Of a stretch of DNA of 64,000 nucleotides, positions 775-62,472 are shown piece after piece. This DNA comes from Escherichia phage vB_EcoP_EP32B: sequence record OR544955; one strand, 5' to 3'. Made by a program: the position numbers and the translations under genes. The notes beneath the pieces are model-generated. The model saw only the letters and a program-made list of their open reading frames with translations. It was not told the origin of the DNA and ran no database searches. Position 1 is the first letter of the stretch. Each line of letters begins with the position of its first letter.

Positions 775-2744
775 TGTGAAATAGGCTCCAAATCTATAGT
801 TAAGTACTGAGGACGTAAGTCATTTTCGAATACGATTAAAGAACCATCCTTTGTAAAAATAATATCATCTGCAGGGTCGGAATAAAGTTCAATTGTTTGA
901 ACTTCAAAACGGTCTGAAGTGAGGTCAATTTTAGCAATGTTCCAATAAATCGAATCGGCAGGATAATTCACTTCACCAATTGAATAGTATTTGTTTCGTC
1001 CGTCAGTAACAGTAAGTTTATTAAAATCATTACCTGTATAAGGTTGTATATTTTCGTTTTCAACAACATCACCGTCTGCAAATGGACCAATAATAACTTG
1101 ACCTATGCCACGGTCATTACGGTCAGAAGATACTATGCGAACACCGTATTTAATAGTTTCGTTTGCATTTTCTGGATTAGGTCTGTGCGAATCAAACGAG
1201 AATATATTAGATTCCATCGATCTATCTTTAATCTGATTATTGTATTTAATACCGGCCTCAGGCGTTTTATAGAAGTTTTGTACTTCGCGAACCATTTGAA
1301 TAGTAGCTGAAGAACCAATAATAGAAATATCTGCATCATCGACATAAGTTAGCATTTTAGATTTTGCAAACGATGAGTTAAAAATTTCTACATCTTCGAT
1401 ATAATATCGGTCTATTTTATTAATAATCTGCCCTTCAAGATATTGTTCTGATTCTTGGAGTTTATTCAACGCGTATGTAACTTTGATATTCATTTTGATA
1501 AACAAATAATCAGGCGAAATAACAACAGGTGTAATAGTCCCTAAGTTATAATCATTTAAATAGTTTTTGATATCATCGCGTTGGACAGAAGTCAAATACA
1601 ATCCAGATTTAGGCTTAGCAGCAATATATGCGTACCCTGGTTTAGATGAATCTGTGAATGTTTGAACCGCTTGAATAATAGAACCAAACCGCTCAGAGAC
1701 GAATGTGTCATAGTCGGAAGCGGTTACACAACGTTGTTGAGTTTCGCGTTTAATTGTGCCTAATTCGCGGATACGTTCAATATCTTCAGGGTCACCGCCA
1801 CCGTCGGCCCCGACAAAGTCTGGGTTATTGCTAGGGTTCTCGTTAATATCGATTACCGTGATATTAGCTAATGTATCAGCATAAGAAAATCCTACAGCAC
1901 CGTTGGCATCTGCGCCATTAGTAGAAATATACTCAATTACGATTTTAGAACCCTGAACAGGTTTAAGGCCACCAATATAGTTAGATGTTAACGCACCTTC
2001 TGATGTGTTAATAGAGATTTCGCCTTCACCAAAATAAAATTCTGTGTTCCCATCAACTGTTTCACGCATATAATAGATTGTTGACGTAGAACCAGCGTGA
2101 ACCATCGACTTACGAGTCCAGTTAATCCATTCTGCTCCGTCAACATACAACTTAACCAAATTACGGTCAATATTCTTATCACGAATAATGATAGGTTTTA
2201 ATCTATCAAATGTTAATTCAGTGCGAACAATACGTCCTTGAGCTAATCGAAGACGTGGAAAATATTGGTTATTTTTGTCTTTAACTACAATGACATCTTC
2301 GGTAGAAACAAAGTTATATGGGTTAACAGAAGTATCTTTAGCGTATGCTAAGAAACGAGTGCCACGTGGAATGGTGATATAGTTTCTATTTAATGCATCC
2401 GTACATGTGAGCATAATTTCTGTTTGTGCTGCTGATTTAGATGAAGGCAGATATCCGTTATCTTGAGCCGCTTGTACAACAGAACTACGCAAGTTTGCAG
2501 TACGCATAAAACTTTCATACACCGCACTATTACTGAACTGTTGGATGTAAAGAGTGTTATATGCTAAAAGGTCGCACAATACGTTTAAGCGTGAACCTTC
2601 AAAATCATAATCAAGAAATTCATTCTGCCCATTAAGCCATTCGATAATGTTCTGTTTGATTTCGGCAAATGTGCCCCCGATAAAAATCTCGGGAATAGCA
2701 TTCGCTGTTCTGGTTAATTGATAATTTACAGGAGTGTTTGCCAT
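771..2744 (-). CDS. 6: baseplate wedge protein gp6
   Basis: ORF 771..2801; start placed at internal Met MANTPVNYQLTRTANAIPEIF (T4 gp6-like N-terminus) with AGGA upstream; 657 aa. Confidence 0.85.
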   Translation of the reverse strand: MANTPVNYQLTRTANAIPEIFIGGTFAEIKQNIIEWLNGQNEFLDYDFEGSRLNVLCDLLAYNTLYIQQFSNSAVYESFMRTANLRSSVVQAAQDNGYLPSSKSAAQTEIMLTCTDALNRNYITIPRGTRFLAYAKDTSVNPYNFVSTEDVIVVKDKNNQYFPRLRLAQGRIVRTELTFDRLKPIIIRDKNIDRNLVKLYVDGAEWINWTRKSMVHAGSTSTIYYMRETVDGNTEFYFGEGEISINTSEGALTSNYIGGLKPVQGSKIVIEYISTNGADANGAVGFSYADTLANITVIDINENPSNNPDFVGADGGGDPEDIERIRELGTIKRETQQRCVTASDYDTFVSERFGSIIQAVQTFTDSSKPGYAYIAAKPKSGLYLTSVQRDDIKNYLNDYNLGTITPVVISPDYLFIKMNIKVTYALNKLQESEQYLEGQIINKIDRYYIEDVEIFNSSFAKSKMLTYVDDADISIIGSSATIQMVREVQNFYKTPEAGIKYNNQIKDRSMESNIFSFDSHRPNPENANETIKYGVRIVSSDRNDRGIGQVIIGPFADGDVVENENIQPYTGNDFNKLTVTDGRNKYYSIGEVNYPADSIYWNIAKIDLTSDRFEVQTIELYSDPADDIIFTKDGSLIVFENDLRPQYLTIDLEPISQ

Positions 2745-2752
2745 TTTAATTC

Positions 2753-3046
2753 CTATTTTATAAAGACTTTTGACGAGGCCTGAGAAACAGTATCCCCGCA
2801 TGAAATTGGGTCGGCCATTTGAACGGCCTTTTTACCGGTGACGTATACTTTAGATGTACGAGGTTCAGTAACACCTCCATGAGTCTCGTATGGTTTTTTA
2901 ATTTCTGTATGAGGTGTTATTTGGTCTCCTGCCACTAGAACAGGAATACCGCCTGTGAACACTTTAGATTGGGAAGCATTTATTACAGTAGGAGGCCATG
3001 CTTCATGACCTGCTGTAACGCACTTGTCGTAACTTAAGCCAGACAT
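2753..3046 (-). CDS. 5.4: PAAR-repeat baseplate spike tip protein gp5.4
   Basis: 97 aa from Met [21 protein letters not shown]; matches recalled T4 gp5.4 almost along its length; position between 5.1 and 6. Confidence 0.85.
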
Positions 3047-3048
3047 TT

Positions 3049-3564
3049 TCACGGCCTCACATAAACATAGTTTCGTAATTGATGAGCCCATTTGCTCCAA
3101 TTTCCTACTATAGTTTTTGTATAAACCTTAGTAAGAGTTTTTTGTACTGGAGCCGGTGGAGGTTCTGTACCAGAGTCACTTCTAGAACCGCCTGATGAAC
3201 TTTCTTCTTGGTAGTTATAAATCATTTCAACCGTATAACTAAACACTTTACGAAGATTCTGAGGAGCTCTCCACAAATATAACTGTGTGGACTCATCTTT
3301 TGGTAAATCATCCCATGAAGATGCGGTTTCAAAATCATCATTTAATCGATATTTCAATGCGTCCGAAGAAAAGCTAAACACACTTTCATATGTTCCATAT
3401 AAACGATTACCGTCTACCGTAATGCCTTGTGTCGGTTCATAATCTGTTATATTTATTGACACTAAAGTTTCGGTTGTTTCTAACTGTGGAGTAAAAAGGA
3501 CGTCAATAGACGCCCCTTCCATGTCTTCTCCTAAGTCGGTATTTAAAGGAAGTATTTGTGCCAT
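3049..3564 (-). CDS. 5.1: hypothetical protein at gp5.1 position
   Basis: 171 aa ORF immediately downstream of gp5 on minus strand; assigned by synteny only. Confidence 0.55.
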
Positions 3565-15976: not shown

Positions 15977-16068
15977 GGAACAAAATGAAAACTCCAACCT
16001 GTAATAATGTCGAGCCCAAGTGCGGTAATGGGTTGCCACGGAATGGCCCAACATAAAAGAGAAACTAA

Positions 16069-19760: not shown

Positions 19761-19969
19761 ATATACATTATCCACATCCATATGACCCAAAGAATAAGGC
19801 AGTAATTATTCGTCAATGGGAACGCATTTGCCGTACTAAATGCCCAATTAATAGTCCACATGATGTAGATAAAGACTATATTGGAACATTCGTTGAATAT
19901 ACCTTTATTGATAAGAAAGGTCGTAAACAACATGTAGAAGAATATTGCTTAAAGGTTACATGGTTATGA
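19757..19969 (+). CDS. hypothetical protein (70 aa)
   Basis: ORF 19742..19969, start at MNIHYPHPYD. Confidence 0.45.
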   Translation: MNIHYPHPYDPKNKAVIIRQWERICRTKCPINSPHDVDKDYIGTFVEYTFIDKKGRKQHVEEYCLKVTWL

Positions 19970-20496
19970 GTCTTACTGCCGCCCATAACTATAAAGAACG
20001 TGGCATGGGTGTATTAGTTCTTAAACCGGCTATTGATACTCGCGATTCAAAAGGTGAAATAGTCTCTCGTATTGGTATTCGTCAGGACGCCAATATAATT
20101 ACAAAAGACATGGATATCTTTGAATTCTATAAATGGGCTGCAGCACAAAAGGATATTCATTGTGTATTTGTTGACGAAGCTCAGTTCTTAACTACTGAAA
20201 AGGTGTATCAACTTAGTCGTATTGTTGACGTATACAATGTGCCGGTAATGGCATATGGACTACGAACAGATTTTAAAGGTAATCTATTTGAAGGTTCTCA
20301 AGCATTAATGGCTATTGCCGATAAGCTTGTTGAACTTAAAGGTGTCTGTCATTGCGGTAAAAAGGCCACAATGGTAGCTAGAGTCACGGAAGACGGACTT
20401 CCAATTACAGATGGCAGTCAAATTGAAATTGGTGATACTGATAGATATGTGTCATTATGCCGGAAGCATTGGAATGATTTGACAGGGTTGTTATAA
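19960..20496 (+). CDS. tk: thymidine kinase homolog lacking the N-terminal P-loop (probable remnant)
   Basis: MVMSLTAAHNYKERGMGVLVLKPAIDTRD... aligns with TK1-family Tk from just after the GKS Walker A; in-frame stop 19924-19926 upstream. Confidence 0.7.
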   Translation: MVMSLTAAHNYKERGMGVLVLKPAIDTRDSKGEIVSRIGIRQDANIITKDMDIFEFYKWAAAQKDIHCVFVDEAQFLTTEKVYQLSRIVDVYNVPVMAYGLRTDFKGNLFEGSQALMAIADKLVELKGVCHCGKKATMVARVTEDGLPITDGSQIEIGDTDRYVSLCRKHWNDLTGLL

Positions 20497-24296: not shown

Positions 24297-24322
24297 ACGA
24301 AATGAGTAAATTGGAGAATAAA

Positions 24323-25303
24323 ATGTTCAACGTTCAAATCAAAAAAGGTATCTATCGTAATAACGAAATCTCTGGTTCTTATGTTGCCACAAAGACCTGG
24401 TTCCCGGCAAAGCTTAATCCTGAATGTTCCCACTTAGGTGATGGTAAAATTTTCGTTATGATTGATGGTTCTGAACGTGGAGTATGGGTCTTCAAATCAG
24501 ACATCGTAATGGAAGGAGTTGAGACATCACCGGTTGCAGTTGTTGAAAGCACTGAAGATATGAAAACTCGTATCAACAAACGCTTTAAAGTAATGAACAT
24601 GATGACGAATGGCATTATCGATGGTAAAATTCGTTCACTCATTATTTCAGGTGCAGCTGGTATTGGTAAGACGTATTCTCTGGATAAAGCACTTAATAAC
24701 GCTAATGATAATGGTTTCATCAAATACAAAAGCATTAATGGTAAAATCTCCGGTATTGGCCTTTACGAACAACTTTGGCTCAACCGTGATGCAGACAGCG
24801 TTCTCTTAATCGACGACGTTTACGTATTCTCGGATATGGACATCTTGAACCTTCTTAAAGCAGCATTAGATACTGGAGATAAACGCAAAGTTTGCTGGAG
24901 CACGGCGTCATCTTATCTCGATGATAAGGGTATTGATAAAGAATTTGAGTTTGAAGGTACTATCGTTTTCATTACAAACGTTGATATCGATAAAGAGTTA
25001 GAACGCGGTTCGAAACTTGCTCCGCACCTTCAAGCTTTAGTATCTCGTTCAGTGTATCTCGACCTTGGAGTACACTCTAATGAAGAGATTATGGTTCGAG
25101 TTGAAGATGTAATATTATCTACTGACATGATGCAGAAACGTGGTCTGACGGATGCAGAAACGTATAAAGCATTGTCCTGGATGAAGGCTAACGTATCTCG
25201 TCTTCGCAATGTATCATTACGTACGGCTCTTTATGTAGCAGATTTTATTTCAACTGATAAAGATGGTTGGGAGGAAATCTCCGAAGTAACTTTACTGAAA
25301 TAA
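24323..25303 (+). CDS. P-loop ATPase with N-terminal extra domain
   Basis: Walker A GAAGIGKT, Walker B VLLIDDV; ORF 24302..25303 with start MFNVQ after GGAGAATAAA. Confidence 0.65.
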   Translation: MFNVQIKKGIYRNNEISGSYVATKTWFPAKLNPECSHLGDGKIFVMIDGSERGVWVFKSDIVMEGVETSPVAVVESTEDMKTRINKRFKVMNMMTNGIIDGKIRSLIISGAAGIGKTYSLDKALNNANDNGFIKYKSINGKISGIGLYEQLWLNRDADSVLLIDDVYVFSDMDILNLLKAALDTGDKRKVCWSTASSYLDDKGIDKEFEFEGTIVFITNVDIDKELERGSKLAPHLQALVSRSVYLDLGVHSNEEIMVRVEDVILSTDMMQKRGLTDAETYKALSWMKANVSRLRNVSLRTALYVADFISTDKDGWEEISEVTLLK

Positions 25304-25441
25304 GCTTATAGGAAGTTCTGAGGTAACAAAAGCCATAAAGATGAATAATCATATGGCTTACCTCAAAGAAGGACACCAGGAACCTACTGAGGGCATAGAA
25401 ATATTTAAAAATAATGTTGTACAAATCAAAGAGGCTATGTT

Positions 25442-25729
25442 ATGGATTTTATGCAAAAAATTAAAGCCGCAGTCGAACTGTATGCTCATCGTATGGTTAG
25501 TTCTACAATGCAATATAGCGAGGAGGTTCGCCAGGACTCTTCCTTGAAAGGAAAAACTAAAGCCTTAATTACCTTAGACCGTTTGCAAAAGAATGTCATA
25601 GAGATGCTCCAGTACGACAAGGGTGTATATAAGAAAGAACAGGAAGAGAAACTTAAATCTGAAAAATTACAAAAAATCCCGAAGTCGGTTTGGTTCAGTG
25701 GAAAAAATACCGAAAAAAGTTTCTTTTAG
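25442..25729 (+). CDS. hypothetical protein (95 aa)
   Basis: ATG preceded by AAAGAGG; overlapping ORF 25341..25547 judged less likely. Confidence 0.45.
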   Translation: MDFMQKIKAAVELYAHRMVSSTMQYSEEVRQDSSLKGKTKALITLDRLQKNVIEMLQYDKGVYKKEQEEKLKSEKLQKIPKSVWFSGKNTEKSFF

Positions 25730-25731
25730 TT

Positions 25732-25780
25732 GTTTACAAGGTCTATGTTTATGTTATTATAGACCTATCAACTACTGGAG
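25732..25780 (+). promoter_or_regulatory. early promoter in inverted repeat (PeSL-like)
   Basis: GTTTAC, inverted repeat AGGTCTAT...ATAGACCT around GTTATTATAG, then ACTGGAGG. Confidence 0.45.
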
Positions 25781-25787
25781 GTAAAAC

Positions 25788-26315
25788 ATGAACGCTAAAG
25801 ATATTTTCAACCTGGTAAATTATAACGACGGTAAATTTAAATCCGAAGCACAAAGCAAGTTCTTTAATGACGTTGCTTATGGTAACGAGATTACTGTGGA
25901 CGGAGGTCAGATTTTCAAATCTCGCTGGAATTGGATTGTTATCATCGATTCAGTTGGAATTGTGGAAGTCTACAAAAACACTAACAAAAAACGTACATTA
26001 TTCTGGTCTCGTGAAACTAACGAGCAGTACAAAAAGGATAAAGCATCTCGTTTATCCAAAGTAACCCAGGAAGATATCGAGTTTATCAAGAAAGATATCG
26101 AGATGTACGAAAATTTAATCGCTGAAGACCAGGCAGTACTCGATAAGTTTGATGAAATTAAAGCTTCTCGTGAAATCCCTGACTTCATGAAAGAAACAGT
26201 AAACGAACGATACGCTCTCACTTCAGAACGTATTGCAAACTATACAAAACAGAAATCAGAACGTATTAGTACTCTTCGGAAATTTGAAGAACGTTTAAAG
26301 ACGGTTCACGCATAA
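25788..26315 (+). CDS. hypothetical protein (175 aa)
   Basis: ORF after promoter hairpin. Confidence 0.6.
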   Translation: MNAKDIFNLVNYNDGKFKSEAQSKFFNDVAYGNEITVDGGQIFKSRWNWIVIIDSVGIVEVYKNTNKKRTLFWSRETNEQYKKDKASRLSKVTQEDIEFIKKDIEMYENLIAEDQAVLDKFDEIKASREIPDFMKETVNERYALTSERIANYTKQKSERISTLRKFEERLKTVHA

Positions 26316-26377
26316 ACGCTTTACCCAAGGACGGGTTATAATGGTTTTGAGTTCCAATTCAATCTGAGGAAATAGTT

Positions 26378-27373
26378 ATGAGCATTACATCTGATGCTGT
26401 AAAACATGAAATTAACGGTTTATGTGCTTCACAGATTAAAGTGTGGTTTAAAGACCATAACGATCGCAGAGCACTTAATTATGAGCAAATTGCTATCCAA
26501 GTTCATCAATTACTGACTAGTAAATTTGATTTTCATATGCCGTCTGAAATCTATACTAATCTACCGCGAGCGCTTATTAAAGCGTGTAAAGGTTACGGAA
26601 AATCAATGGCTGATGGAATCTTCAGCGCGCTGAATAAACTTAACGTTCTGTCGATGATTAACTCTAACAACATCCTGCGTAATCTAGGACGTACTGATTT
26701 GTTCGGTCGTGAACAGTGTAAAATGCCTTTGAAATGGATTGTTGCTCATCTTAACGAGAACCAAACACGTTTTATGGCCGTATCAGCACGCTTACAAATG
26801 GGCCTAGATCGTCAGATGAACTTTAAAACTCATCCACGTTATTCAGGTTCAACAGACTTTTATAAATGTGAGCTTCAAAAGGTCGGTGGCAAAACCGTCT
26901 TAGTAGTTCGTGTAACGTTTGAAGGACGACGTCAAGGATATTTTGACCTAATCGGCTCTGGTCTTAAACATTGTGGATTTATTGACGAAGTTGATATCAA
27001 GCGAGACGGCATTGGATACCGTATTGGATATGTTTGTACTCTTAAAGAAGAGATTTCAGGACCAGCACCAGGACTAAAAGACGTTAGATATAAAGACGAG
27101 CTCATTGAAGAAATAAAAGAAGTTGAATATGATATCAACCAAGAAGATGCTCTTAAAGACCTTATTGATGAACTAAACCAAGACGTTATTCCGGTTCAGA
27201 AATTTGAATCAAAACACGCTGAGCAAATCAAATACTTTGAAGCTTTGATTAACGAACTTAATGTAACTATTCAACAAACTGATGATGAAATCTCACGATT
27301 AGCAGGCTTAAACGGTAAAAATAAAACAGAACGAGCTAATCTTATTCAGGTAGTAAAACTTCTTAAGGAATGA
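26378..27373 (+). CDS. hypothetical protein with C-terminal coiled coil (331 aa)
   Basis: preceded by GCTTTAC / GTTATAATG promoter-like pair and GAGG. Confidence 0.6.
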   Translation: MSITSDAVKHEINGLCASQIKVWFKDHNDRRALNYEQIAIQVHQLLTSKFDFHMPSEIYTNLPRALIKACKGYGKSMADGIFSALNKLNVLSMINSNNILRNLGRTDLFGREQCKMPLKWIVAHLNENQTRFMAVSARLQMGLDRQMNFKTHPRYSGSTDFYKCELQKVGGKTVLVVRVTFEGRRQGYFDLIGSGLKHCGFIDEVDIKRDGIGYRIGYVCTLKEEISGPAPGLKDVRYKDELIEEIKEVEYDINQEDALKDLIDELNQDVIPVQKFESKHAEQIKYFEALINELNVTIQQTDDEISRLAGLNGKNKTERANLIQVVKLLKE

Positions 27374-27402
27374 TGTACAACCAAGGATGGTTGGAGTATA
27401 AT
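27371..27402 (+). promoter_or_regulatory. early promoter; first copy of a 27-bp direct repeat
   Basis: TACAACCAAGGATGGTTGGAGTATAAT at 27376-27402, -10 TATAAT. Confidence 0.45.
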
Positions 27403-27428
27403 AAATTTTTCAACATGAGGAATATAAA

Positions 27429-28250
27429 ATGGCTTTTATTACACGTAGAGAACTTATCAAAGAATTTACCTCGAACGCATATACTCCAGGACCTAATCCT
27501 ATCCGTATGCCTGTAAAGACTCCTGAAGAGATTGAGGAAATCTGTTCATATTATGGGATTACTTCTCGTAAGTTTACTCAATTTGAATGCGTTACTAACA
27601 CACCCGTTAAAGAGTTCATTAAAAATGGTGAGTTCAGCCGTTTATTAGCCAAACAGAAACTTCGTAATTTTTGTATTGGCGGTGAAGGACAATATTTCGC
27701 TAAGCAGTTTCGGAATAACCTTAACAATCTGATGGCCATTGCTTCTCGTATTCGTCCTCAAGCAATTAATATGAAACATTTGAAATATACTTACGATAAG
27801 TTGGAAATCATGGTTATCAGTGAGAATGAGTTCACTCTCACGTATAAACCTAAGAATGATAACGTTGCTCGTGTATTCCACCAAGCGTTGGAAGTGTTAG
27901 GTGATAATATTCACCAGATTAAAGCAATTTATTCTCGTGAGCTTAATATTATCAACCCTATCAAGAATAAGGGCCATATCGCTATCCAGGCTCGTGTATC
28001 TATTGGTAAAAAGGTTCCTGCGCCATGGTGGCACAAAGACTCCGAATATTATCAAAATCTTAAAAAGGAAAATGCACTAATGACCTTCTTCCGGCCGAAG
28101 ATTACCATTACAATCAAATCAAGGCCACTATGGACCAACTGTCTGTTGAACTTGACAAAGCACAAGCTAAGCTTCGTGATGCTCAAAGTGTTGTAACGAA
28201 TCTCCAGTTGCAGTACTCTAAACTTTTTAACGCAATGAATGCATTAAAAT
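27429..28250 (+). CDS. hypothetical protein, apparently frameshifted near its 3-prime end
   Basis: 255-codon ORF 27429..28196 ends in an implausible hydrophobic tail while the +2 frame encodes a coiled-coil C-terminus MDQLSVELDKAQAKLRDAQSVV...NALKS ending about 28250. Confidence 0.5.
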
Positions 28251-28257
28251 CATAAAT

Positions 28258-28289
28258 CAGTTTACAACCAAGGATGGTTGGAGTATAAT
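28258..28289 (+). promoter_or_regulatory. early promoter; second copy of the 27-bp direct repeat
   Basis: GTTTAC plus identical TACAACCAAGGATGGTTGGAGTATAAT at 28263-28289. Confidence 0.45.
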
Positions 28290-28318
28290 GAAATCTATCT
28301 TAACGAGAGGAAAATATT

Positions 28319-29263
28319 ATGACACGTTCACATTACGTTGATTATTTTGCAGGTCTTATCGCTAACGTTCATGCCCAACGTGCTTCTGGTGCACTAGGAT
28401 TTGATGTTCCACACCGAGATGTAGTAAGTGGCATTCTTCGAGATTTTGGTACATACACAGGTCAAGAAAATCATATCTGTAAAGATACTCAGAATGCGTA
28501 TTCTCATTCATTAGGGACGCTGCTTCAATGGTTTAAACGTTCTCGTTTATTATCTTCTACTGTGGCTCGTGATAACATTAAAAACTTTATGAAGCCGAGC
28601 TTTATTAAATCTGTGACATCTAAAACCGATTTGGTTGAATTCACTATTGTTAATGATGTTAAAAAGGCTCATTTGGCTGATTGGTTCTCTACCATTCCTG
28701 AAACTAAATTTGCTGATAAATTTGCTTGTGAATTCAATAACCAAGTGAATATGCTTTTTAAACATTCACGTAAATTATTCACTGGCGGCGATGGCCGTAC
28801 AAATAAAGTTCATGTTAAAGATTGGGTTACTGCAGTATTCAAACCAACTGGTAATGGTAACGCATCGTTATCAATTGATATCCAGGTTCCTTATTATTAC
28901 TCACGTAATCTCGGTACCATGAAAGCCGAAGAAATTAATAAGCGCAACAAAACCATTCGTTCTCTGTCTTATAAACTTCGCATGATGTTACAGACTATGG
29001 ATGTTGTTGAAATGTTCGACGAAACCGAAGATAACGGTTCAATGTTATTCAGTTCTCGAATTAAAATTAAACTGAAGAACCCTAATGTGTTTAAGCCTAT
29101 TAAAGAACCTAAAGCAGAAAAGGTCGATATCATGGCCGAAGAACGCGAATATCTCAAATCTCGTCTGAAAGAAGTCGAAGCCCAGATTGCAGAACAAACT
29201 AAATCGTTAAAAGCTCTGAATGCGAAAGCGGACGGTTTACGAAATGCCATTGAGGTGTTATAA
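28319..29263 (+). CDS. hypothetical protein with C-terminal coiled coil (314 aa)
   Basis: ORF with GAGAGG Shine-Dalgarno. Confidence 0.6.
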   Translation: MTRSHYVDYFAGLIANVHAQRASGALGFDVPHRDVVSGILRDFGTYTGQENHICKDTQNAYSHSLGTLLQWFKRSRLLSSTVARDNIKNFMKPSFIKSVTSKTDLVEFTIVNDVKKAHLADWFSTIPETKFADKFACEFNNQVNMLFKHSRKLFTGGDGRTNKVHVKDWVTAVFKPTGNGNASLSIDIQVPYYYSRNLGTMKAEEINKRNKTIRSLSYKLRMMLQTMDVVEMFDETEDNGSMLFSSRIKIKLKNPNVFKPIKEPKAEKVDIMAEEREYLKSRLKEVEAQIAEQTKSLKALNAKADGLRNAIEVL

Positions 29264-29568
29264 TGAACCTACGTCTTCTAGAGGATATTGATATGAGCAC
29301 TAATCATGGCTTGGTTAAGTTTATTGACGATAGTTCAAAGATTGAATTTGTTCAGCGAGATAAAATCCACGGTGAAGAAGAGTTCGTTCCTCCGGCATGG
29401 AACGAAATAATGAAAATGGTTGAACGACGTGAAAATGCTGCCAAATCGGCAGCAAAACATCCATGTCCGGAATGTGGAACTATCCAAGTCCAACTGGTTA
29501 ACTGGACCACTGATAACTTGAAATTGAAATGCCGTAAATGCTTCCACAAATTTGAGAGAACATTATAA
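29263..29568 (+). CDS. zinc-ribbon protein (101 aa)
   Basis: CPECG...CRKC four-cysteine motif. Confidence 0.55.
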   Translation: MNLRLLEDIDMSTNHGLVKFIDDSSKIEFVQRDKIHGEEEFVPPAWNEIMKMVERRENAAKSAAKHPCPECGTIQVQLVNWTTDNLKLKCRKCFHKFERTL

Positions 29569-29981
29569 TGAGATATAGCCTTCGTTGTTTTATCGCAGCT
29601 TTAGTTTTTGCCATCATTCCATTCATTTGGAACAGCCAGAATACTTACATGGAAACTAAAGTAATTCCTGTGGAGGTAGTGGAATTAATTTCAGGTCAAT
29701 CTACAGGAAAATATTCTAAATTGGAATTTATTGCAGTTTATAAAGATGAACAAGGTCGAGTTTTTGACAGGCATGTATCACCATCGTTTTATACGCTTCT
29801 TAATAAAGGTGATACGATAGCTATAGAAATTCGTGAGATGGATATCAAACAAACTACTAAAGATAACCTGATTTGGTTCTTTGGTACAGTGTTGATGTTC
29901 TCTATCGGTATCACAGGTTTTATTACATGCATTGTATTTGGTGTTGCATATTTAATCGATGAAAGGAAAAATAATGTTTAA
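29568..29981 (+). CDS. membrane protein (137 aa)
   Basis: N- and C-terminal hydrophobic segments. Confidence 0.55.
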   Translation: MRYSLRCFIAALVFAIIPFIWNSQNTYMETKVIPVEVVELISGQSTGKYSKLEFIAVYKDEQGRVFDRHVSPSFYTLLNKGDTIAIEIREMDIKQTTKDNLIWFFGTVLMFSIGITGFITCIVFGVAYLIDERKNNV

Positions 29982-30237
29982 AGTGTACGGGTATGACTCT
30001 ACTATTCATAAATGCATTTATTGCGATAATGCGAAACGATTGCTGACTGTTAAGAAACAGCCATTCGAATTCATTAATGTTATGCCAGAAAAAGGTGTGT
30101 TCGATGATGAGAAAATTGCTGAGCTTCTGGTTAAGCTTGGCCGTGAATCACAAGTCGGATTGACTATGCCTCAAGTGTTTGCTCCTGATGGAACTTCGAT
30201 CGGTGGCTTTGACCAACTACGAGAATATTTTAAATGA
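29974..30237 (+). CDS. nrdC: thioredoxin/glutaredoxin NrdC
   Basis: MFKVYGYDSTIHKCIYCDNAKRLL...GGFDQLREYFK, CxxC motif, matches recalled T4 NrdC. Confidence 0.9.
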   Translation: MFKVYGYDSTIHKCIYCDNAKRLLTVKKQPFEFINVMPEKGVFDDEKIAELLVKLGRESQVGLTMPQVFAPDGTSIGGFDQLREYFK

Positions 30238-30377
30238 CAATGGTTACCATTACCGTTGAAGAATATAATCGCCTGCAAGCCATTGAAGAGCTTCTTTGGG
30301 AAATTGAATCTGATTTGCCATCTGGGCTAGAATCCTGGGTTGATTATGAAGAGATCAATAAGCTCCGCGGTTAAACC
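30237..30377 (+). CDS. small acidic protein (46 aa)
   Basis: ATGA overlap with nrdC stop; below track cutoff. Confidence 0.35.
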
Positions 30378-30502
30378 GTGGTATTCGGCTCGATGGGAGA
30401 CAGTCGAGCCAGACGTCGAAACGGTTTACAACTACGAAGAACCATGTTATGATGAACCTTCAATAAATGAATTAATTGATATGGAAATGGGAAGAGATTA
30501 TT

Positions 30503-30673
30503 ATGCAAGTTAAATTATTATACCGTTTATTAAAAAATGGCAAGCATGATTGGTATTTGCTTATTAAAACCGATCCGAATTTTTTCTCTGGACAACCATT
30601 TACAGTTCGTCCTACTAAACGTCAGCTTCGCAAAGCTAAACGTTCTCATCGTAACTTTTATAGAGAATATTGA
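30503..30673 (+). CDS. small basic protein (56 aa)
   Basis: frame of track ORF 30476..30673, start MQVKLLYRLL. Confidence 0.35.
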   Translation: MQVKLLYRLLKNGKHDWYLLIKTDPNFFSGQPFTVRPTKRQLRKAKRSHRNFYREY

Positions 30674-40015: not shown

Positions 40016-41578
40016 ATGAAATCATTTAAATTAAATCGTGTTCGTTATCAAAACATCATGTCAGTAGGTGGGAATCCTATTGATATCCAATTAGATAAAG
40101 TCCAAAAGACATTAATCACTGGTAAAAATGGCGGTGGTAAATCTACGATGTTAGAAGCCATTACTTTCGGACTTTTCGGTAAACCATTTCGTGATGTTAA
40201 GAAAGGACAAATCATTAATAGCATGAACAAGAAAGAGCTCTTAGTTGAGCTTTGGATGGAATTCGATGATAAAAAATACTTCATTAAACGTGGCCAAAAG
40301 CCCAATATTTTCGAAATCTCCGTTGACGGTGTTCGTCTCGATGAATCTGCCAGCAGTCGTGACTTCCAAGAAGAATTTGAACGTAGCATCGGAATGTCAT
40401 ACGCGTCTTTTAAACAAATCGTTGTGCTTGGGACGGCAGGGTATACCCCTTTCATGGCTCTTAGCACCCCTGCTCGTAGAAAGCTTGTTGAAGACTTATT
40501 AGAAGTTGGCACACTCGCTGAAATGGATAAAATCAATAAGTCTCAAGTTCGCGAACTTAATTCTCAGGGACAAGTTCTTGATGCCAAGAAAGATGGTATT
40601 ATCCAACAAATTAAGATTTATAACGAGAATATCGAACGTCAAAAGAAATTATCTGGTGATAATGTAGCGCGTCTACAGAATATGTATGACGACCTAGCCA
40701 AAGAAGCTCGGTCATTAAAAGCAGAAATCGAAGAAGCTAATGAGCGACTACTTAATATCGTTCTTGATGAAGACCCTACTGAGGCATTCAACAAGATAGG
40801 ACAAGAAGCATTCTTGATTAAATCTAAAATTGACTCATATAACAAAGTTATTAAGATGTATCATGATGGCGGTACATGTCCTACTTGTGCATCACAGTTG
40901 CACCAGGGTGACCCTATTGTCTCTAAGATTACCGATAAGCTTCATGAATGTAATCACTCATTCGAGCAACTTACATGTCACAGAGATAATCTGAGTGTCC
41001 TAGTGGACGAATATAGAGCTAATGTCAAGACTAAACAGGACCTTGCATCTGATATTCGTACCAAGAAACAAGCAATGATTGCCACTATTGATAAAGCTAA
41101 GAAAGTTAAAGCTGCAATAGAACAAGCCTCAGCAGAATTTATCGACCATGCCGATGAGATAGCTTTGCTTCAAAAAGAACTTGATAAAATCATTAAAACA
41201 AAATCGGATATCGTTCTTGAAAAATACCATCGTGGTATTATCACAGATATGTTAAAAGATTCTGGTATTAAAGGTGCTATCATTAAAAAATATGTGCCTC
41301 TGTTCAACAAGCAGATTAACCATTATCTTAAAATCATGGAAGCTGATTACGTGTTTTCTATTGACGAAGAATTCAATGAATCTATAAAATCACGTGGCCG
41401 TGAAGAGTTCAGTTATGCTTCATTTAGTCAAGGCGAAAAAGCGCGTATCGATATCGCATTGTTGTTTACATGGCGAGATATTGCTGAAAAGGTCTCTGGT
41501 GTTAAAATCAACACAACGTGTTCATTATTTCTCACAGAGACCATGACCCACAAGCTTATGGACAACATCTTCAAATGA
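40016..41578 (+). CDS. 46: recombination ATPase subunit gp46 (Rad50/SbcC-like)
   Basis: 520 aa; Walker A GKNGGGKST, long coiled-coil, CPTC zinc hook. Confidence 0.9.
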   Translation: MKSFKLNRVRYQNIMSVGGNPIDIQLDKVQKTLITGKNGGGKSTMLEAITFGLFGKPFRDVKKGQIINSMNKKELLVELWMEFDDKKYFIKRGQKPNIFEISVDGVRLDESASSRDFQEEFERSIGMSYASFKQIVVLGTAGYTPFMALSTPARRKLVEDLLEVGTLAEMDKINKSQVRELNSQGQVLDAKKDGIIQQIKIYNENIERQKKLSGDNVARLQNMYDDLAKEARSLKAEIEEANERLLNIVLDEDPTEAFNKIGQEAFLIKSKIDSYNKVIKMYHDGGTCPTCASQLHQGDPIVSKITDKLHECNHSFEQLTCHRDNLSVLVDEYRANVKTKQDLASDIRTKKQAMIATIDKAKKVKAAIEQASAEFIDHADEIALLQKELDKIIKTKSDIVLEKYHRGIITDMLKDSGIKGAIIKKYVPLFNKQINHYLKIMEADYVFSIDEEFNESIKSRGREEFSYASFSQGEKARIDIALLFTWRDIAEKVSGVKINTTCSLFLTETMTHKLMDNIFK

Positions 41579-41617
41579 GCAAAGTTGGACGATTTACGGT
41601 AATGACTGTTTCATAAA

Positions 41618-45072: not shown

Positions 45073-47757
45073 ATGAAAGAATTTTACTTAACGGTTGAAC
45101 AGATTGGTGATTCAATTTTTGAACGTTACATCGATTCTAATGGCCGTGAACGTACTCGTGAAGTAGAATATAAACCATCACTGTTTGCTCATTGTCCAGA
45201 AAGTCAGGCTACGAAATATTTCGATATCTACGGTAAGCCGTGTACTCGTAAGTTGTTCGCTAATATGCGTGATGCCTCCCAATGGATTAAACGTATGGAA
45301 GATATCGGACTTGAAGCACTTGGCATGGACGATTTCAAATTGGCGTATTTGTCTGACACTTATAACTATGAAATCAAATACGACCATACAAAAATTCGTG
45401 TGGCTAACTTCGACATCGAAGTAACATCTCCGGACGGGTTCCCTGAGCCGTCACAAGCAAAACATCCGATTGATGCTATCACCCATTATGACTCAATTGA
45501 CGACAGGTTCTACGTATTTGATCTATTGAATTCTCCATATGGTAATGTAGAAGAATGGTCTATCGAAATTGCAGCTAAGCTTCAAGAACAAGGTGGTGAT
45601 GAAGTTCCATCCGAAATTATCGATAAAATCATTTATATGCCGTTCGATAACGAAAAAGAATTGTTGATGGAATATCTCAACTTCTGGCAACAGAAAACTC
45701 CTGTCATTTTGACTGGATGGAACGTTGAGTCATTTGATATTCCATATGTGTATAACCGAATCAAGAATATTTTTGGCGAATCTACTGCGAAACGTTTATC
45801 ACCACATCGTAAAACTCGTGTTAAAGTTATCGAAAACATGTATGGTTCTCGTGAAATCATTACATTGTTCGGTATCTCTGTTCTTGATTATATTGACCTT
45901 TACAAAAAATTCTCTTTTACCAATCAACCGTCGTATTCTCTGGATTACATTTCAGAATTTGAATTGAACGTTGGTAAACTGAAATACGACGGTCCTATTT
46001 CTAAACTTCGTTATAACATCATCGACGTATATCGTGTATTGCAAATTGATGCTAAACGCCAGTTCATTAACTTGAGTTTGGACATGGGTTATTATGCTAA
46101 GATACAGATTCAATCTGTGTTTAGCCCAATTAAAACATGGGATGCTATTATTTTTAATAGCCTTAAAGAACAAAACAAGGTGATTCCACAAGGTCGTTCG
46201 CATCCAGTTCAACCTTACCCGGGTGCTTTTGTTAAGGAACCTATTCCAAATCGATACAAATATGTAATGAGTTTCGACCTTACATCTCTGTATCCAAGTA
46301 TTATTCGCCAAGTGAATATTAGCCCGGAAACAATAGCAGGAACGTTTAAAGTAGCTCCACTGCATGATTATATTAACGCAATCGCTGAACGTCCTTCAGA
46401 TGTGTACAGTTGCTCTCCTAACGGCATGATGTATTATAAAGACCGTGACGGTGTTGTTCCAACTGAAATCACTAAGGTCTTTAATCAACGTAAAGAACAT
46501 AAAGGTTATATGCTTGCAGCTCAACGTAATGGTGAAATAATTAAAGAGGCATTGCATAATCCTAATCTTTCTGTTGACGAACCATTAGATGTTGATTATC
46601 GTTTCGACTTCAGCGATGAGATTAAAGAAAAGATTAAAAAGTTGTCTGCTAAATCTCTTAATGAAATGTTGTTTAGAGCTCAACGTACTGAAGTTGCAGG
46701 TATGACTGCACAGATTAACCGTAAATTGCTTATCAACTCACTTTATGGTGCACTTGGAAACGTTTGGTTCCGTTATTATGATTTGCGTAATGCTACTGCA
46801 ATCACAACATTCGGACAAATGGCTTTACAGTGGATTGAACGTAAAGTTAATGAATATCTGAATGAAGTTTGCGGTACAGAAGGTGAAGCTTTCGTTCTTT
46901 ATGGTGATACAGACTCTATTTACGTATCTGCTGATAAAATTATCGATAAGGTTGGTGAATCTAAATTCCGTGATACCAACCATTGGGTAGACTTCTTAGA
47001 TAAGTTCGCTCGTGAACGTATGGAACCTGCTATTGATAGAGGTTTCCGTGAAATGTGCGAATACATGAATAATAAGCAACATTTGATGTTCATGGACCGA
47101 GAAGCTATCGCTGGTCCTCCGCTCGGTTCTAAAGGTATTGGTGGATTTTGGACTGGTAAGAAACGTTATGCATTAAACGTGTGGGATATGGAAGGTACTC
47201 GTTACGCTGAGCCTAAACTCAAAATCATGGGTCTAGAGACTCAGAAATCTTCGACACCTAAAGCAGTACAGAAAGCTCTTAAAGAATGTATTCGTCGTAT
47301 GCTTCAAGAAGGTGAAGAATCATTACAAGAATATTTTAAAGAGTTTGAAAAAGAATTCCGTCAATTGAATTATATTAGCATCGCGTCGGTATCTTCTGCG
47401 AATAACATTGCTAAATATGATGTCGGTGGATTCCCTGGCCCCAAATGTCCGTTCCATATTCGTGGAATTCTGACATATAACCGAGCTATCAAAGGTAATA
47501 TCGATGCACCGCAAGTTGTAGAAGGTGAAAAAGTATATGTTCTGCCTTTACGTGAAGGAAACCCATTCGGTGATAAATGTATCGCATGGCCTTCTGGTAC
47601 GGAAATCACTGATTTAATCAAAGATGATGTACTTCATTGGATGGACTACACGGTTCTCCTTGAGAAGACATTTATTAAACCACTTGAAGGATTCACATCA
47701 GCAGCTAAACTCGATTACGAGAAGAAAGCATCTCTGTTCGATATGTTTGATTTTTGA
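45073..47757 (+). CDS. 43: DNA polymerase gp43 (family B)
   Basis: 894 aa; exonuclease motif FDIEV, polymerase motifs DxxSLYPS and YGDTDS. Confidence 0.95.
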   Translation: MKEFYLTVEQIGDSIFERYIDSNGRERTREVEYKPSLFAHCPESQATKYFDIYGKPCTRKLFANMRDASQWIKRMEDIGLEALGMDDFKLAYLSDTYNYEIKYDHTKIRVANFDIEVTSPDGFPEPSQAKHPIDAITHYDSIDDRFYVFDLLNSPYGNVEEWSIEIAAKLQEQGGDEVPSEIIDKIIYMPFDNEKELLMEYLNFWQQKTPVILTGWNVESFDIPYVYNRIKNIFGESTAKRLSPHRKTRVKVIENMYGSREIITLFGISVLDYIDLYKKFSFTNQPSYSLDYISEFELNVGKLKYDGPISKLRYNIIDVYRVLQIDAKRQFINLSLDMGYYAKIQIQSVFSPIKTWDAIIFNSLKEQNKVIPQGRSHPVQPYPGAFVKEPIPNRYKYVMSFDLTSLYPSIIRQVNISPETIAGTFKVAPLHDYINAIAERPSDVYSCSPNGMMYYKDRDGVVPTEITKVFNQRKEHKGYMLAAQRNGEIIKEALHNPNLSVDEPLDVDYRFDFSDEIKEKIKKLSAKSLNEMLFRAQRTEVAGMTAQINRKLLINSLYGALGNVWFRYYDLRNATAITTFGQMALQWIERKVNEYLNEVCGTEGEAFVLYGDTDSIYVSADKIIDKVGESKFRDTNHWVDFLDKFARERMEPAIDRGFREMCEYMNNKQHLMFMDREAIAGPPLGSKGIGGFWTGKKRYALNVWDMEGTRYAEPKLKIMGLETQKSSTPKAVQKALKECIRRMLQEGEESLQEYFKEFEKEFRQLNYISIASVSSANNIAKYDVGGFPGPKCPFHIRGILTYNRAIKGNIDAPQVVEGEKVYVLPLREGNPFGDKCIAWPSGTEITDLIKDDVLHWMDYTVLLEKTFIKPLEGFTSAAKLDYEKKASLFDMFDF

Positions 47758-59369: not shown

Positions 59370-59786
59370 ATGATTTATTATATGCACAAAAATGCGCCAT
59401 TTAAATATGGTAAATTTCCTAATGCACAATGTTATAATATAACGCCTAATGAAAATAATAACGGATACCATCTCGGTGTAATTTTTGTAATTGTTAAAGA
59501 TAACGAAATCGTTGCCTGGGCAGATTTTAAAGGTACAACATATGATGTTAATCCTGTGCCTTTCACATATTATAATTTAATGGATTTGGCATATGATTAT
59601 AATTGGTTTAATCATGAAGGATTTGACATCTCTTATTCTAGCTATTCATTATGTCCTATGAGCCGAGCTCACGGTAAAGATGTATCATATCTTTCAATTC
59701 GGAAACGTGTAAACTTCAAACGTAGTACAGAGTATGTTGGTGGACTCTTTGTTAAAGATAATAAAATAACATTAGTTATCCTCTAA
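59370..59786 (+). CDS. hypothetical protein (138 aa)
   Basis: ORF 59361..59786, start MIYYMHKN. Confidence 0.5.
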   Translation: MIYYMHKNAPFKYGKFPNAQCYNITPNENNNGYHLGVIFVIVKDNEIVAWADFKGTTYDVNPVPFTYYNLMDLAYDYNWFNHEGFDISYSSYSLCPMSRAHGKDVSYLSIRKRVNFKRSTEYVGGLFVKDNKITLVIL

Positions 59787-59993
59787 GTGTAGGCCAAAAA
59801 GATGTTGATGTTGATTTGGACTTAACTGAAAATAACATTAATCGTATTGCTTCTGTATATTTTGATATCGATGAAAAAATTGTAGTGTGTGGATACGAAT
59901 TACCACCTGAAGAAAAGGCCGAAACAATTGAAGTCGAATTAGAAATTTCTGTTGATGACCAAATATTTAATGCATTTATGAATCGAGGTTAAA

Positions 59994-60179
59994 ATGACTA
60001 CTGCAATTTGCACTGGTTCTAAAATTAGTGTTTTTACAAGTTTTGAAGATTATGAAGTTGTTTCAAAACACCAATGCCATATTAGCGTAAAAGCTAATGA
60101 CGGTGTAATTTGGAATATTCCACAGTATGAAGGCACTACATATGAAGTCACAGATAAAGCAATCTTTGTAATTGATTAA
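59994..60179 (+). CDS. hypothetical protein (61 aa)
   Basis: short ORF. Confidence 0.45.
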   Translation: MTTAICTGSKISVFTSFEDYEVVSKHQCHISVKANDGVIWNIPQYEGTTYEVTDKAIFVID

Positions 60180-62328: not shown

Positions 62329-62472
62329 ATGGGTGGTTATGTAAACATCAAAACCTTTACGCATCCTGCTGGTGAAGGCAAAGAAGTTAAAGGTATGGAA
62401 GTTTCTGTACCGTTTGAGATTTATTCAAACGAACATCGGATTGCTGATTCTCATTACCAAGTAAGTGGTTAA
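62329..62472 (+). CDS. soc: Soc-like small outer capsid protein, shortened (47 aa)
   Basis: GYVNIKTF...HYQVSG resembles Soc N-terminus and extreme C-terminus; AAGGAG Shine-Dalgarno; terminator immediately downstream. Confidence 0.55.
   Translation: MGGYVNIKTFTHPAGEGKEVKGMEVSVPFEIYSNEHRIADSHYQVSG

Follow-up and report, generated by a model that had tools for sequence, protein, structure and literature searches.

Within 64,000 nt of the genome record of Escherichia phage vB_EcoP_EP32b (OR544955), the stretch of DNA analysed here and called the window below, a gene of 255 codons ends in a hydrophobic tail, and a shifted frame over its 3' end encodes a helix. The locus raises the question whether this gene has suffered a frameshift, as the first-pass annotation had proposed, and whether the break belongs to the phage or to the record of its genome. 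Part of the proposal held, as the frame is broken near the 3' end and the downstream helix is the true C-terminus of the protein. A simple frameshift was not found, however; 133 nt are missing.

A DUF7235 gene in two frames

The genome is that of an RB69-like T4-type phage of the genus Mosigvirus, and the 20 kb around the flagged gene are 97.8% identical to E. coli O157 typing phages 3, 6 and 13. The genes on the + strand follow the order nrdC.10, nrdC.9, nrdC.8, nrdC.6, nrdC.5, nrdC.3, nrdC.2, nrdC.7, nrdC, pin, 49 and nrdD, as in RB69. By RB69 naming the flagged gene is nrdC.5. It lies between nrdC.6 and nrdC.3, as in RB69 and other Mosigvirus records, and its product affiliates with the Pfam family DUF7235 and with PHROG 2351 (E 3.9e-68).

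The DUF7235 profile matched the 255-aa ORF over residues 15-213 only (profile positions 1-209, 279.6 bits). The final 39 residues, LMTFFRPKITITIKSRPLWTNCLLNLTKHKLSFVMLKVL, are 51% hydrophobic and gave no family match, which bears out the earlier description of a hydrophobic tail on the annotated frame. The alternative frame, offset by -1 (equivalently +2), is open from 28064 to 28255. Its peptide from 28079, NDLLPAEDYHYNQIKATMDQLSVELDKAQAKLRDAQSVVTNLQLQYSKLFNAMNALKS, matched DUF7235 at profile positions 249-307 (E 3.5e-23, 83 bits), and both parts of nrdC.5 exceed the curated cut-off of 30 bits that served as membership threshold. No continuous ORF covers the whole profile, since positions 210-248 have no counterpart and the C-terminus falls into the other frame. 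The switch between the frames falls where it had first been placed, directly after ...CTTAAAAAGGAAAATGCA. Judged from its sequence, the locus belongs to the DUF7235 family, but the copy, or the record of it, is broken. Chance is far from explaining this pattern, because about 130 relatives have a single conserved gene whose two ends correspond to the halves.

The alternative-frame peptide exhibited the strongest heptad periodicity among the proteins tested, with a crude score of 0.95; the C-termini of NrdC.3 and NrdC.6 scored 0.88 and 0.78. The helix of this peptide is conserved as far as T4 NrdC.5. The likeness to the C-termini of the two flanking genes, which had been part of the original argument, is confined to the presence of an amphipathic helix at each C-terminus; homology was undetectable. 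Alignment of the three neighbouring proteins yielded a BLASTP E value of about 0.3 and an hhalign probability below 1%, and no paralogy of NrdC.6, NrdC.5 and NrdC.3 was detectable.

The gene downstream, nrdC.3, has its own promoter-like site, and a polar effect of the nrdC.5 break on nrdC.3 is therefore not expected. A 30-nt repeat, GTTTACAACCAAGGATGGTTGGAGTATAAT, occurs at 27373-27402 and 28260-28289 with 28 of 30 positions identical and holds the promoter-like hexamers of both nrdC.5 and nrdC.3; in sequence it resembles an early promoter cassette of the T4 type that recurs between genes. The coordinates of the features are collected in the table.

Features of the nrdC.5 locus and gaps of the window (positions in the window; lengths in EP32a, the vB_EcoM_EP32a record, where available)
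Feature	Position	Strand	Remarks
Sigma-70/T4-early-type promoter-like site, TGTACA-17-TATAAT	27374..27402	+	5' of nrdC.5
Shine-Dalgarno-like GAGGA	27417..27421	+	7 nt 5' of ATG 27429, read off the sequence
nrdC.5 ORF in the record	27429..28196	+	255 codons, ATG at 27429
nrdC.5 codons 1-216, conserved N-terminal domain	27429..28076	+	Intact, ~99% identical to relatives
U_AAA_AAG, possible -1 slip site	28061..28067	+	-1 frame open to 28255; rejected as insignificant
Junction of missing nrdC.5 block	28076/28077	+	133 nt of relatives absent, microhomology none; EP32a gap 129 nt, in frame, 276 aa
Out-of-frame read-through	28077..28196	+	39-codon aberrant hydrophobic tail and stop; non-family sequence
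True nrdC.5 C-terminus, 58 codons and stop	28079..28255	+	-1/+2 frame; amphipathic heptad-rich helix
Mechanical 41-aa ORF in C-terminal segment	28130..28255	+	ATG is an internal Met, Val in most relatives
Promoter-like site of nrdC.3, TTTACA-17-TATAAT	28260..28289	+	Next gene downstream
Window-specific gap	6312		77 nt
Window-specific gap	9402		614 nt
tRNA gap	10870/10871		~4.9 kb vs O157 typing phage 3; tRNA-Met, tRNA-Arg and ~12 small ORFs gone
Window-specific gap	13070		92 nt; EP32a ~86 nt
Window-specific gap	13913		35 nt
Window-specific gap	15992-16034		~419 nt
Window-specific gap	16533		4 nt
Window-specific gap	17577		146 nt; EP32a left border identical to the window's
Thymidine kinase gene with gap	19963-20496, junction 19971/19972		446 nt absent; codons 1-19 with P-loop and two small upstream ORFs lost
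Window-specific gap	30237		216 nt
Window-specific gap	31089		~190 nt (EP32a 185 nt, window 190 nt)
Window-specific gap	34223		298 nt
Window-specific gap	34913		28 nt
Window-specific gap	35249		2 nt
Window-specific gap	39863		14 nt
gp46 gene with gap	40016-41613, junction 41514/41515		88 nt absent including Walker B LILDEVFDG; frame shifted; EP32a 89 nt
Window-specific gap	46019-46030		27 nt
Window-specific gap	48093		160 nt
Window-specific gaps	59618-60156		24, 4 and 12 nt
gp56 dCTPase gap	Junction 62287/62288, within the gp56-soc stretch 62012-62463		Residues 1-92 of 173 kept; relatives have 250-594 nt more
soc gap	near 62460		~94 nt absent; residues 1-45 of 78 kept

One-base slips, recoding and a separate small gene

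The frame does change by -1 at the junction, and the ECCR664 record exhibits 1-nt losses in nrdC.5 A-runs, the AAAAA run at this place included. A single-base frameshift in or near CTTAAAAAGGAAAATGC, by mutation or by homopolymer sequencing error, is nevertheless highly improbable, for the 18-nt string CTTAAAAAGGAAAATGCA is unchanged in comparison to intact relatives and the missing block starts directly after it. A slip in any of the A-runs was refuted by the alignments, in which the runs are the same in intact relatives.

Recoding was considered as a second explanation. A -1 slip at U_AAA_AAG, purposeful or as a 'savior' frameshift, would give the linker-less fusion ...YQNLKK-GKCTNDLLPAEDY... 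and restore the C-terminal helix: with the -1 frame open between 28064 and 28255, ribosomes slipping at AAA_AAG would translate the conserved helix in full, and no tetramer is more prone to shifting in E. coli than A_AAG (PMC4066793). The site does not form an X_XXZ_ZZN heptamer, though (C_UUA... / U_AAA_AAG), and only the A_AAG tetramer fits. Such a tetramer without a stimulator shifts barely above background in E. coli (about 0.15% frameshifting against a background of 0.11%; PMC4066793), and no significant RNA structure was predicted downstream, the fold of 28068-28150 reaching -11.6 kcal/mol (z = -0.30 against shuffles). Intact relatives carry the same motif, but there a slip ends after 5 codons, which leaves no conserved signal, and the two-frame layout was present in no relative examined. 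Programmed -1 sites of the dnaX, IS911 and IS3 type share with this locus the AAA_AAG pair of lysine codons and a -1 frame open downstream, but the heptamer, the stimulatory structure, the upstream Shine-Dalgarno-like element and a conserved two-frame layout are all lacking here. On these grounds recoding is hardly credible.

Least probable of all is that the helix is encoded by an independent small gene, the 41-aa ORF of the table. This ORF does start with an ATG, preceded at 5 nt by a weak AAGG, but its Met is internal and replaced by Val in most family members, and the Pfam match begins 5' of the ATG at 28130. The segment is moreover the in-frame end of nrdC.5 in the relatives examined: had the short helix-coding ORF been a separate gene there, the reading of a broken frame would have fallen, and in those genomes the helix instead terminates a protein of 309-319 aa. 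Programmed frameshifting and a separate small gene are thus essentially excluded.

Missing sequence at nrdC.5 and across the window

The block that is missing from nrdC.5 comprises codons 217-260, which form a hypervariable linker, and the first base of codon 261. This loss of 44 codons plus 1 nt accounts for the -1 change of frame. Record and intact relatives are the same up to the end of the 18-nt string; after the loss of 133 nt the sequence restarts at CTAATGACC, and the junction in the record reads AAAATGCA/CTAATGACC. In a megablast search with 27300-28330, the best 40 of 132 records (at least 80% query cover) all matched in two pieces and spanned 1163 nt per 1031-nt query, with the draft OQ031495 as sole exception to that span; this draft carries a run of Ns within the nrdC.5 linker segment. 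The extra sequence was present in every relative checked at the nucleotide level and in every row listed in the searches. In intact relatives nrdC.5 is a single ORF of 960 nt that encodes 319 aa. A protein alignment of 17 cluster representatives was near-invariant up to ...KKENA216, continued into an indel-rich linker and ended in a near-invariant C-terminal helix, and the missing block coincides exactly with the hypervariable linker of this family alignment.

The junction itself had no match in the phage collection, in IMG/VR, in metagenome contigs or in GTDB genome contigs, and exact copies of the 255-aa ORF and of the NrdC.6 and NrdC.3 proteins were absent from public assemblies. Neither microhomology nor direct repeats were present at the junction. 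Slipped-strand deletion or a collapse by the assembler via repeats was rejected, as the nearby AAATG repeats would have led to a different junction.

One reading of the gap is a real deletion of 133 bp by illegitimate recombination, which would leave the phage with a truncated counter-defence protein. The product would consist of 255 aa expressed from its own early promoter, that is 216 native residues followed by a nonsense tail of 39 residues, without linker and C-terminal helix. Such an allele would probably be null or crippled, and neutral on hosts that lack the matching defence. Several observations are consistent with this possibility: the junction is clean; promoter, Shine-Dalgarno sequence and N-terminal domain are all intact; substitutions against relatives look natural, with protein identity at or above DNA identity; and nrdC.5 is also frame-broken in the records of RB69, in the linker, and of ECCR664, upstream of it. 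The surroundings of nrdC are plastic and made up of accessory and anti-defence genes. The T4 nrdC.5 is a dispensable, non-essential accessory gene that was lost in deletion clones (PMC9391042), and a real deletion at this locus would hence be tolerated.

Against a real deletion stand the other gaps of the same window. In comparison to O157 typing phage 3 the window contains at least 20 gaps of 12-4925 nt, and nearly all of them are sequence absent from the window; window-specific sequence reached at most 15 nt inside aligned blocks and 41 nt between them. Gap lengths were multiples of three in about 6 of 22 cases, near the one third expected by chance and with no sign of frame selection. The gaps are therefore one-directional and indifferent to frame. 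GC bias was rejected as their cause, since the missing segments are of ordinary GC content (0.34-0.47, with one exception, against 0.37 overall). The thymidine kinase remnant is an in-frame fusion, ATG AGT/CTT ACT, whose junction was not found in the listed records among 120 relatives spanning the site, and the gap or indel junctions in tk, gene 55.5 and gene 56 were unmatched among the 120-170 relatives spanning them. ARAGORN detected no tRNA in the whole window because the gap of about 4.9 kb starts inside tRNA-Met. Further gaps truncate or frame-shift a RegB-like gene, gp55.5 and gp61.2 (an AdfA homolog; both of the latter frame-shifted), a GutQ-like gene, an nrdH-like fusion and several small ORFs, and 9 residues are absent from the DNA polymerase gp43.

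The frame-breaking gaps in gp46, a Rad50-like recombination nuclease subunit, and in gp56 are not expected in a viable T-even-type phage. The gp46, gp56 dCTPase and gp43 proteins are products of essential genes in T4, and from T4 genetics a plaque-forming T-even-type phage should need the gp46 ATPase and the dCTPase function. EP32b does form plaques, with an efficiency of plating of 0.3-1 (PMC11657129). A plaque-forming phage cannot plausibly lack the functions of both gp46 and gp56, and the record is thus unlikely to be faithful. EP32b was described as a sister phage of EP32a, a Mosigvirus of 156,698 bp with 0 tRNAs (PMC11657129); its relatives have genomes of about 169 kb, so that EP32b is about 12 kb shorter.

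The second record from the same study, vB_EcoM_EP32a (OR544954), is an independently deposited Mosigvirus and contains near-coincident but non-identical gaps at no fewer than five of the gap loci of the window. It provides the only near-match to the gene 46 junction, where two CDS are annotated. Such borders fit neither shared ancestry nor independent random deletions; shared ancestry is unfit because common descent would give identical borders in both records. The EP32a record also has gaps that are absent from the window, for example of 306 and 219 nt. Two of the recurring gaps lie on divergent patches: between O157 typing phage 3 and RB69, identity drops from about 96% in the flanks to 78% at the nrdC.5 gap and 66% at the gene 46 gap. 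One-directional, frame-blind gaps that recur near-identically in a second assembly, two of them on divergent patches, fit missing data better than evolution.

We infer that the nrdC.5 gap is rather likely an assembly artefact, the 133 nt being missing from the assembly and not from the phage. With about 20 gaps of this kind, essential genes included, the evidence points to an assembly fault and away from mutation or a recoding signal. Plausibly, a short stretch of local divergence dropped out as contigs were built or joined; for instance, a short 'bubble' contig from a mixed or heterogeneous sample may have been thrown out and its neighbours joined end to end with no Ns between them. The real phage would then make a normal NrdC.5 of about 310-319 aa with N-terminal domain, variable linker and C-terminal helix. 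NextSeq reads of EP32b were assembled de novo with SPAdes (PMC11657129), and a standard SPAdes run alone does not yield clean gaps of 77-600 nt; an unreported joining or consensus step must be assumed. Moreover, O157 typing phage 3 and RB69 show no variability in the segments that hold the gaps of 216, 298 and 160 nt, and the loss of divergent segments does not account for all gaps. A real deletion at nrdC.5 is, in view of both sides of the evidence, a doubtful alternative. More doubtful still is its wider implication, a natural truncation of the homolog of the T4 anti-Dsr1 protein, which, taken together with EP32a, would make the linker a recurrent deletion hot spot in a lineage that sheds counter-defence genes and thereby narrows its host range.

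The break carries little biological weight and gains more as quality control of a genome record. At best it represents an accessory gene, of a family already known, that has decayed to a pseudogene; most likely it is no biological feature at all. Some 20 gaps appear to lie unmarked in the genome record behind the window, and they give rise to false pseudogenes, those of gp46, gp56, tk, soc and nrdC.5 among them. Until the assembly has been verified, any frameshift, split gene or missing gene observed in this window ought to be discounted.

NrdC.5 in related phages

The Mosigvirus NrdC.5 family is narrow. A word-seeded search of 5.8 billion proteins returned 19 clusters, all at least 79% identical, of which the 17 full-length ones comprise proteins of 309-319 aa. 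An exhaustive HMMER profile search of 1.84 billion representatives returned 2 representatives and did not reach the T4-type members. An AlphaFold model of the full-length protein had a mean pLDDT of 39.9, in which the helix 267-318 reached 54-62 and the linker was lowest; this helix is the sole part predicted with moderate confidence.

Most public records label nrdC.5 as 'thioredoxin' or 'hypothetical'. The 'thioredoxin' label is given in many records to the whole block from nrdC.2 to nrdC.10 (24302-30237), in which only nrdC (29959-30237) is of the glutaredoxin/thioredoxin type, and was apparently transferred from the name of nrdC. As a useful by-product of this analysis, the Mosigvirus gene can be annotated as 'NrdC.5 homolog (DUF7235; the T4 homolog counteracts Dsr1)'.

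The NrdC.5 proteins of mobillu (QHR72720), O157 typing phage 3 (AKE45193) and other Mosigvirus phages have 309-319 aa. They share with the copy in the window 99% identity over codons 1-216 and 98% over the last 59, as well as the flanking genes and promoters. They differ in a variable linker of 27-44 codons, which is in frame; in the window the linker and one further base are absent. An almost identical linker segment is absent from the nrdC.5 of EP32a (WPK28821, 276 aa), but there the gap is in frame and both of its borders are offset by about 10 nt. The stretch of EP32a examined (29804-30634) encodes a linker-less, in-frame NrdC.5 that reads ...ENALFEA/LLPAEDY... across the gap; if true, it would mean that the linker is dispensable for folding.

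The record of RB69 (AAP75999, 300 aa; AY303349) likewise has a frame break in the linker and an identical out-of-frame tail, FFRPKITIT...MLKVL, yet its break consists of several indels of 1-4 nt and not of a block gap. The conserved helix is found in another frame of the RB69 gene (2501-3462 of the stretch examined). This break is either a sequence error from 2003 or a real lesion. In ECCR664 (OL631257) two 1-nt losses in A-runs break nrdC.5 upstream of the linker, and no CDS is annotated.

The only reported role within the DUF7235 family is that of T4 nrdC.5, the product of which counteracts the Dsr1 defence, a SIR2-domain system of E. coli ECOR17 (Srikant, Guegler & Laub, eLife 2022, PMC9391042). 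Supplied in trans, nrdC.5 allowed a T4 deletion clone to grow again on cells with the ECOR17 dsr1 (PMC9391042). Other anti-defence genes are located near nrdC.5: NrdC.1 inhibits Septu, and Gp49.2 inhibits OLD. The T4 protein (NP_049703, 340 aa) was linked to the Mosigvirus protein only through Pfam, BLASTP and hhalign. Both match DUF7235 over its full length (E 5e-126 for T4, E 1.6e-124 for the Mosigvirus protein), and their direct comparison gave a BLASTP E value of 2e-11 and an hhalign probability of 95.9%. The two genes also share their position in the early gene block from nrdC.10 to nrdC, their products have the same architecture, and the C-terminal helix is the best-conserved part of the proteins. 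By homology to T4, the Mosigvirus NrdC.5 is probably an early-expressed counter-defence protein against a Dsr1-type SIR2 system. The two proteins differ in that they are only 25% identical, the copy in this record is broken and the anti-Dsr1 activity is known for the T4 protein alone.
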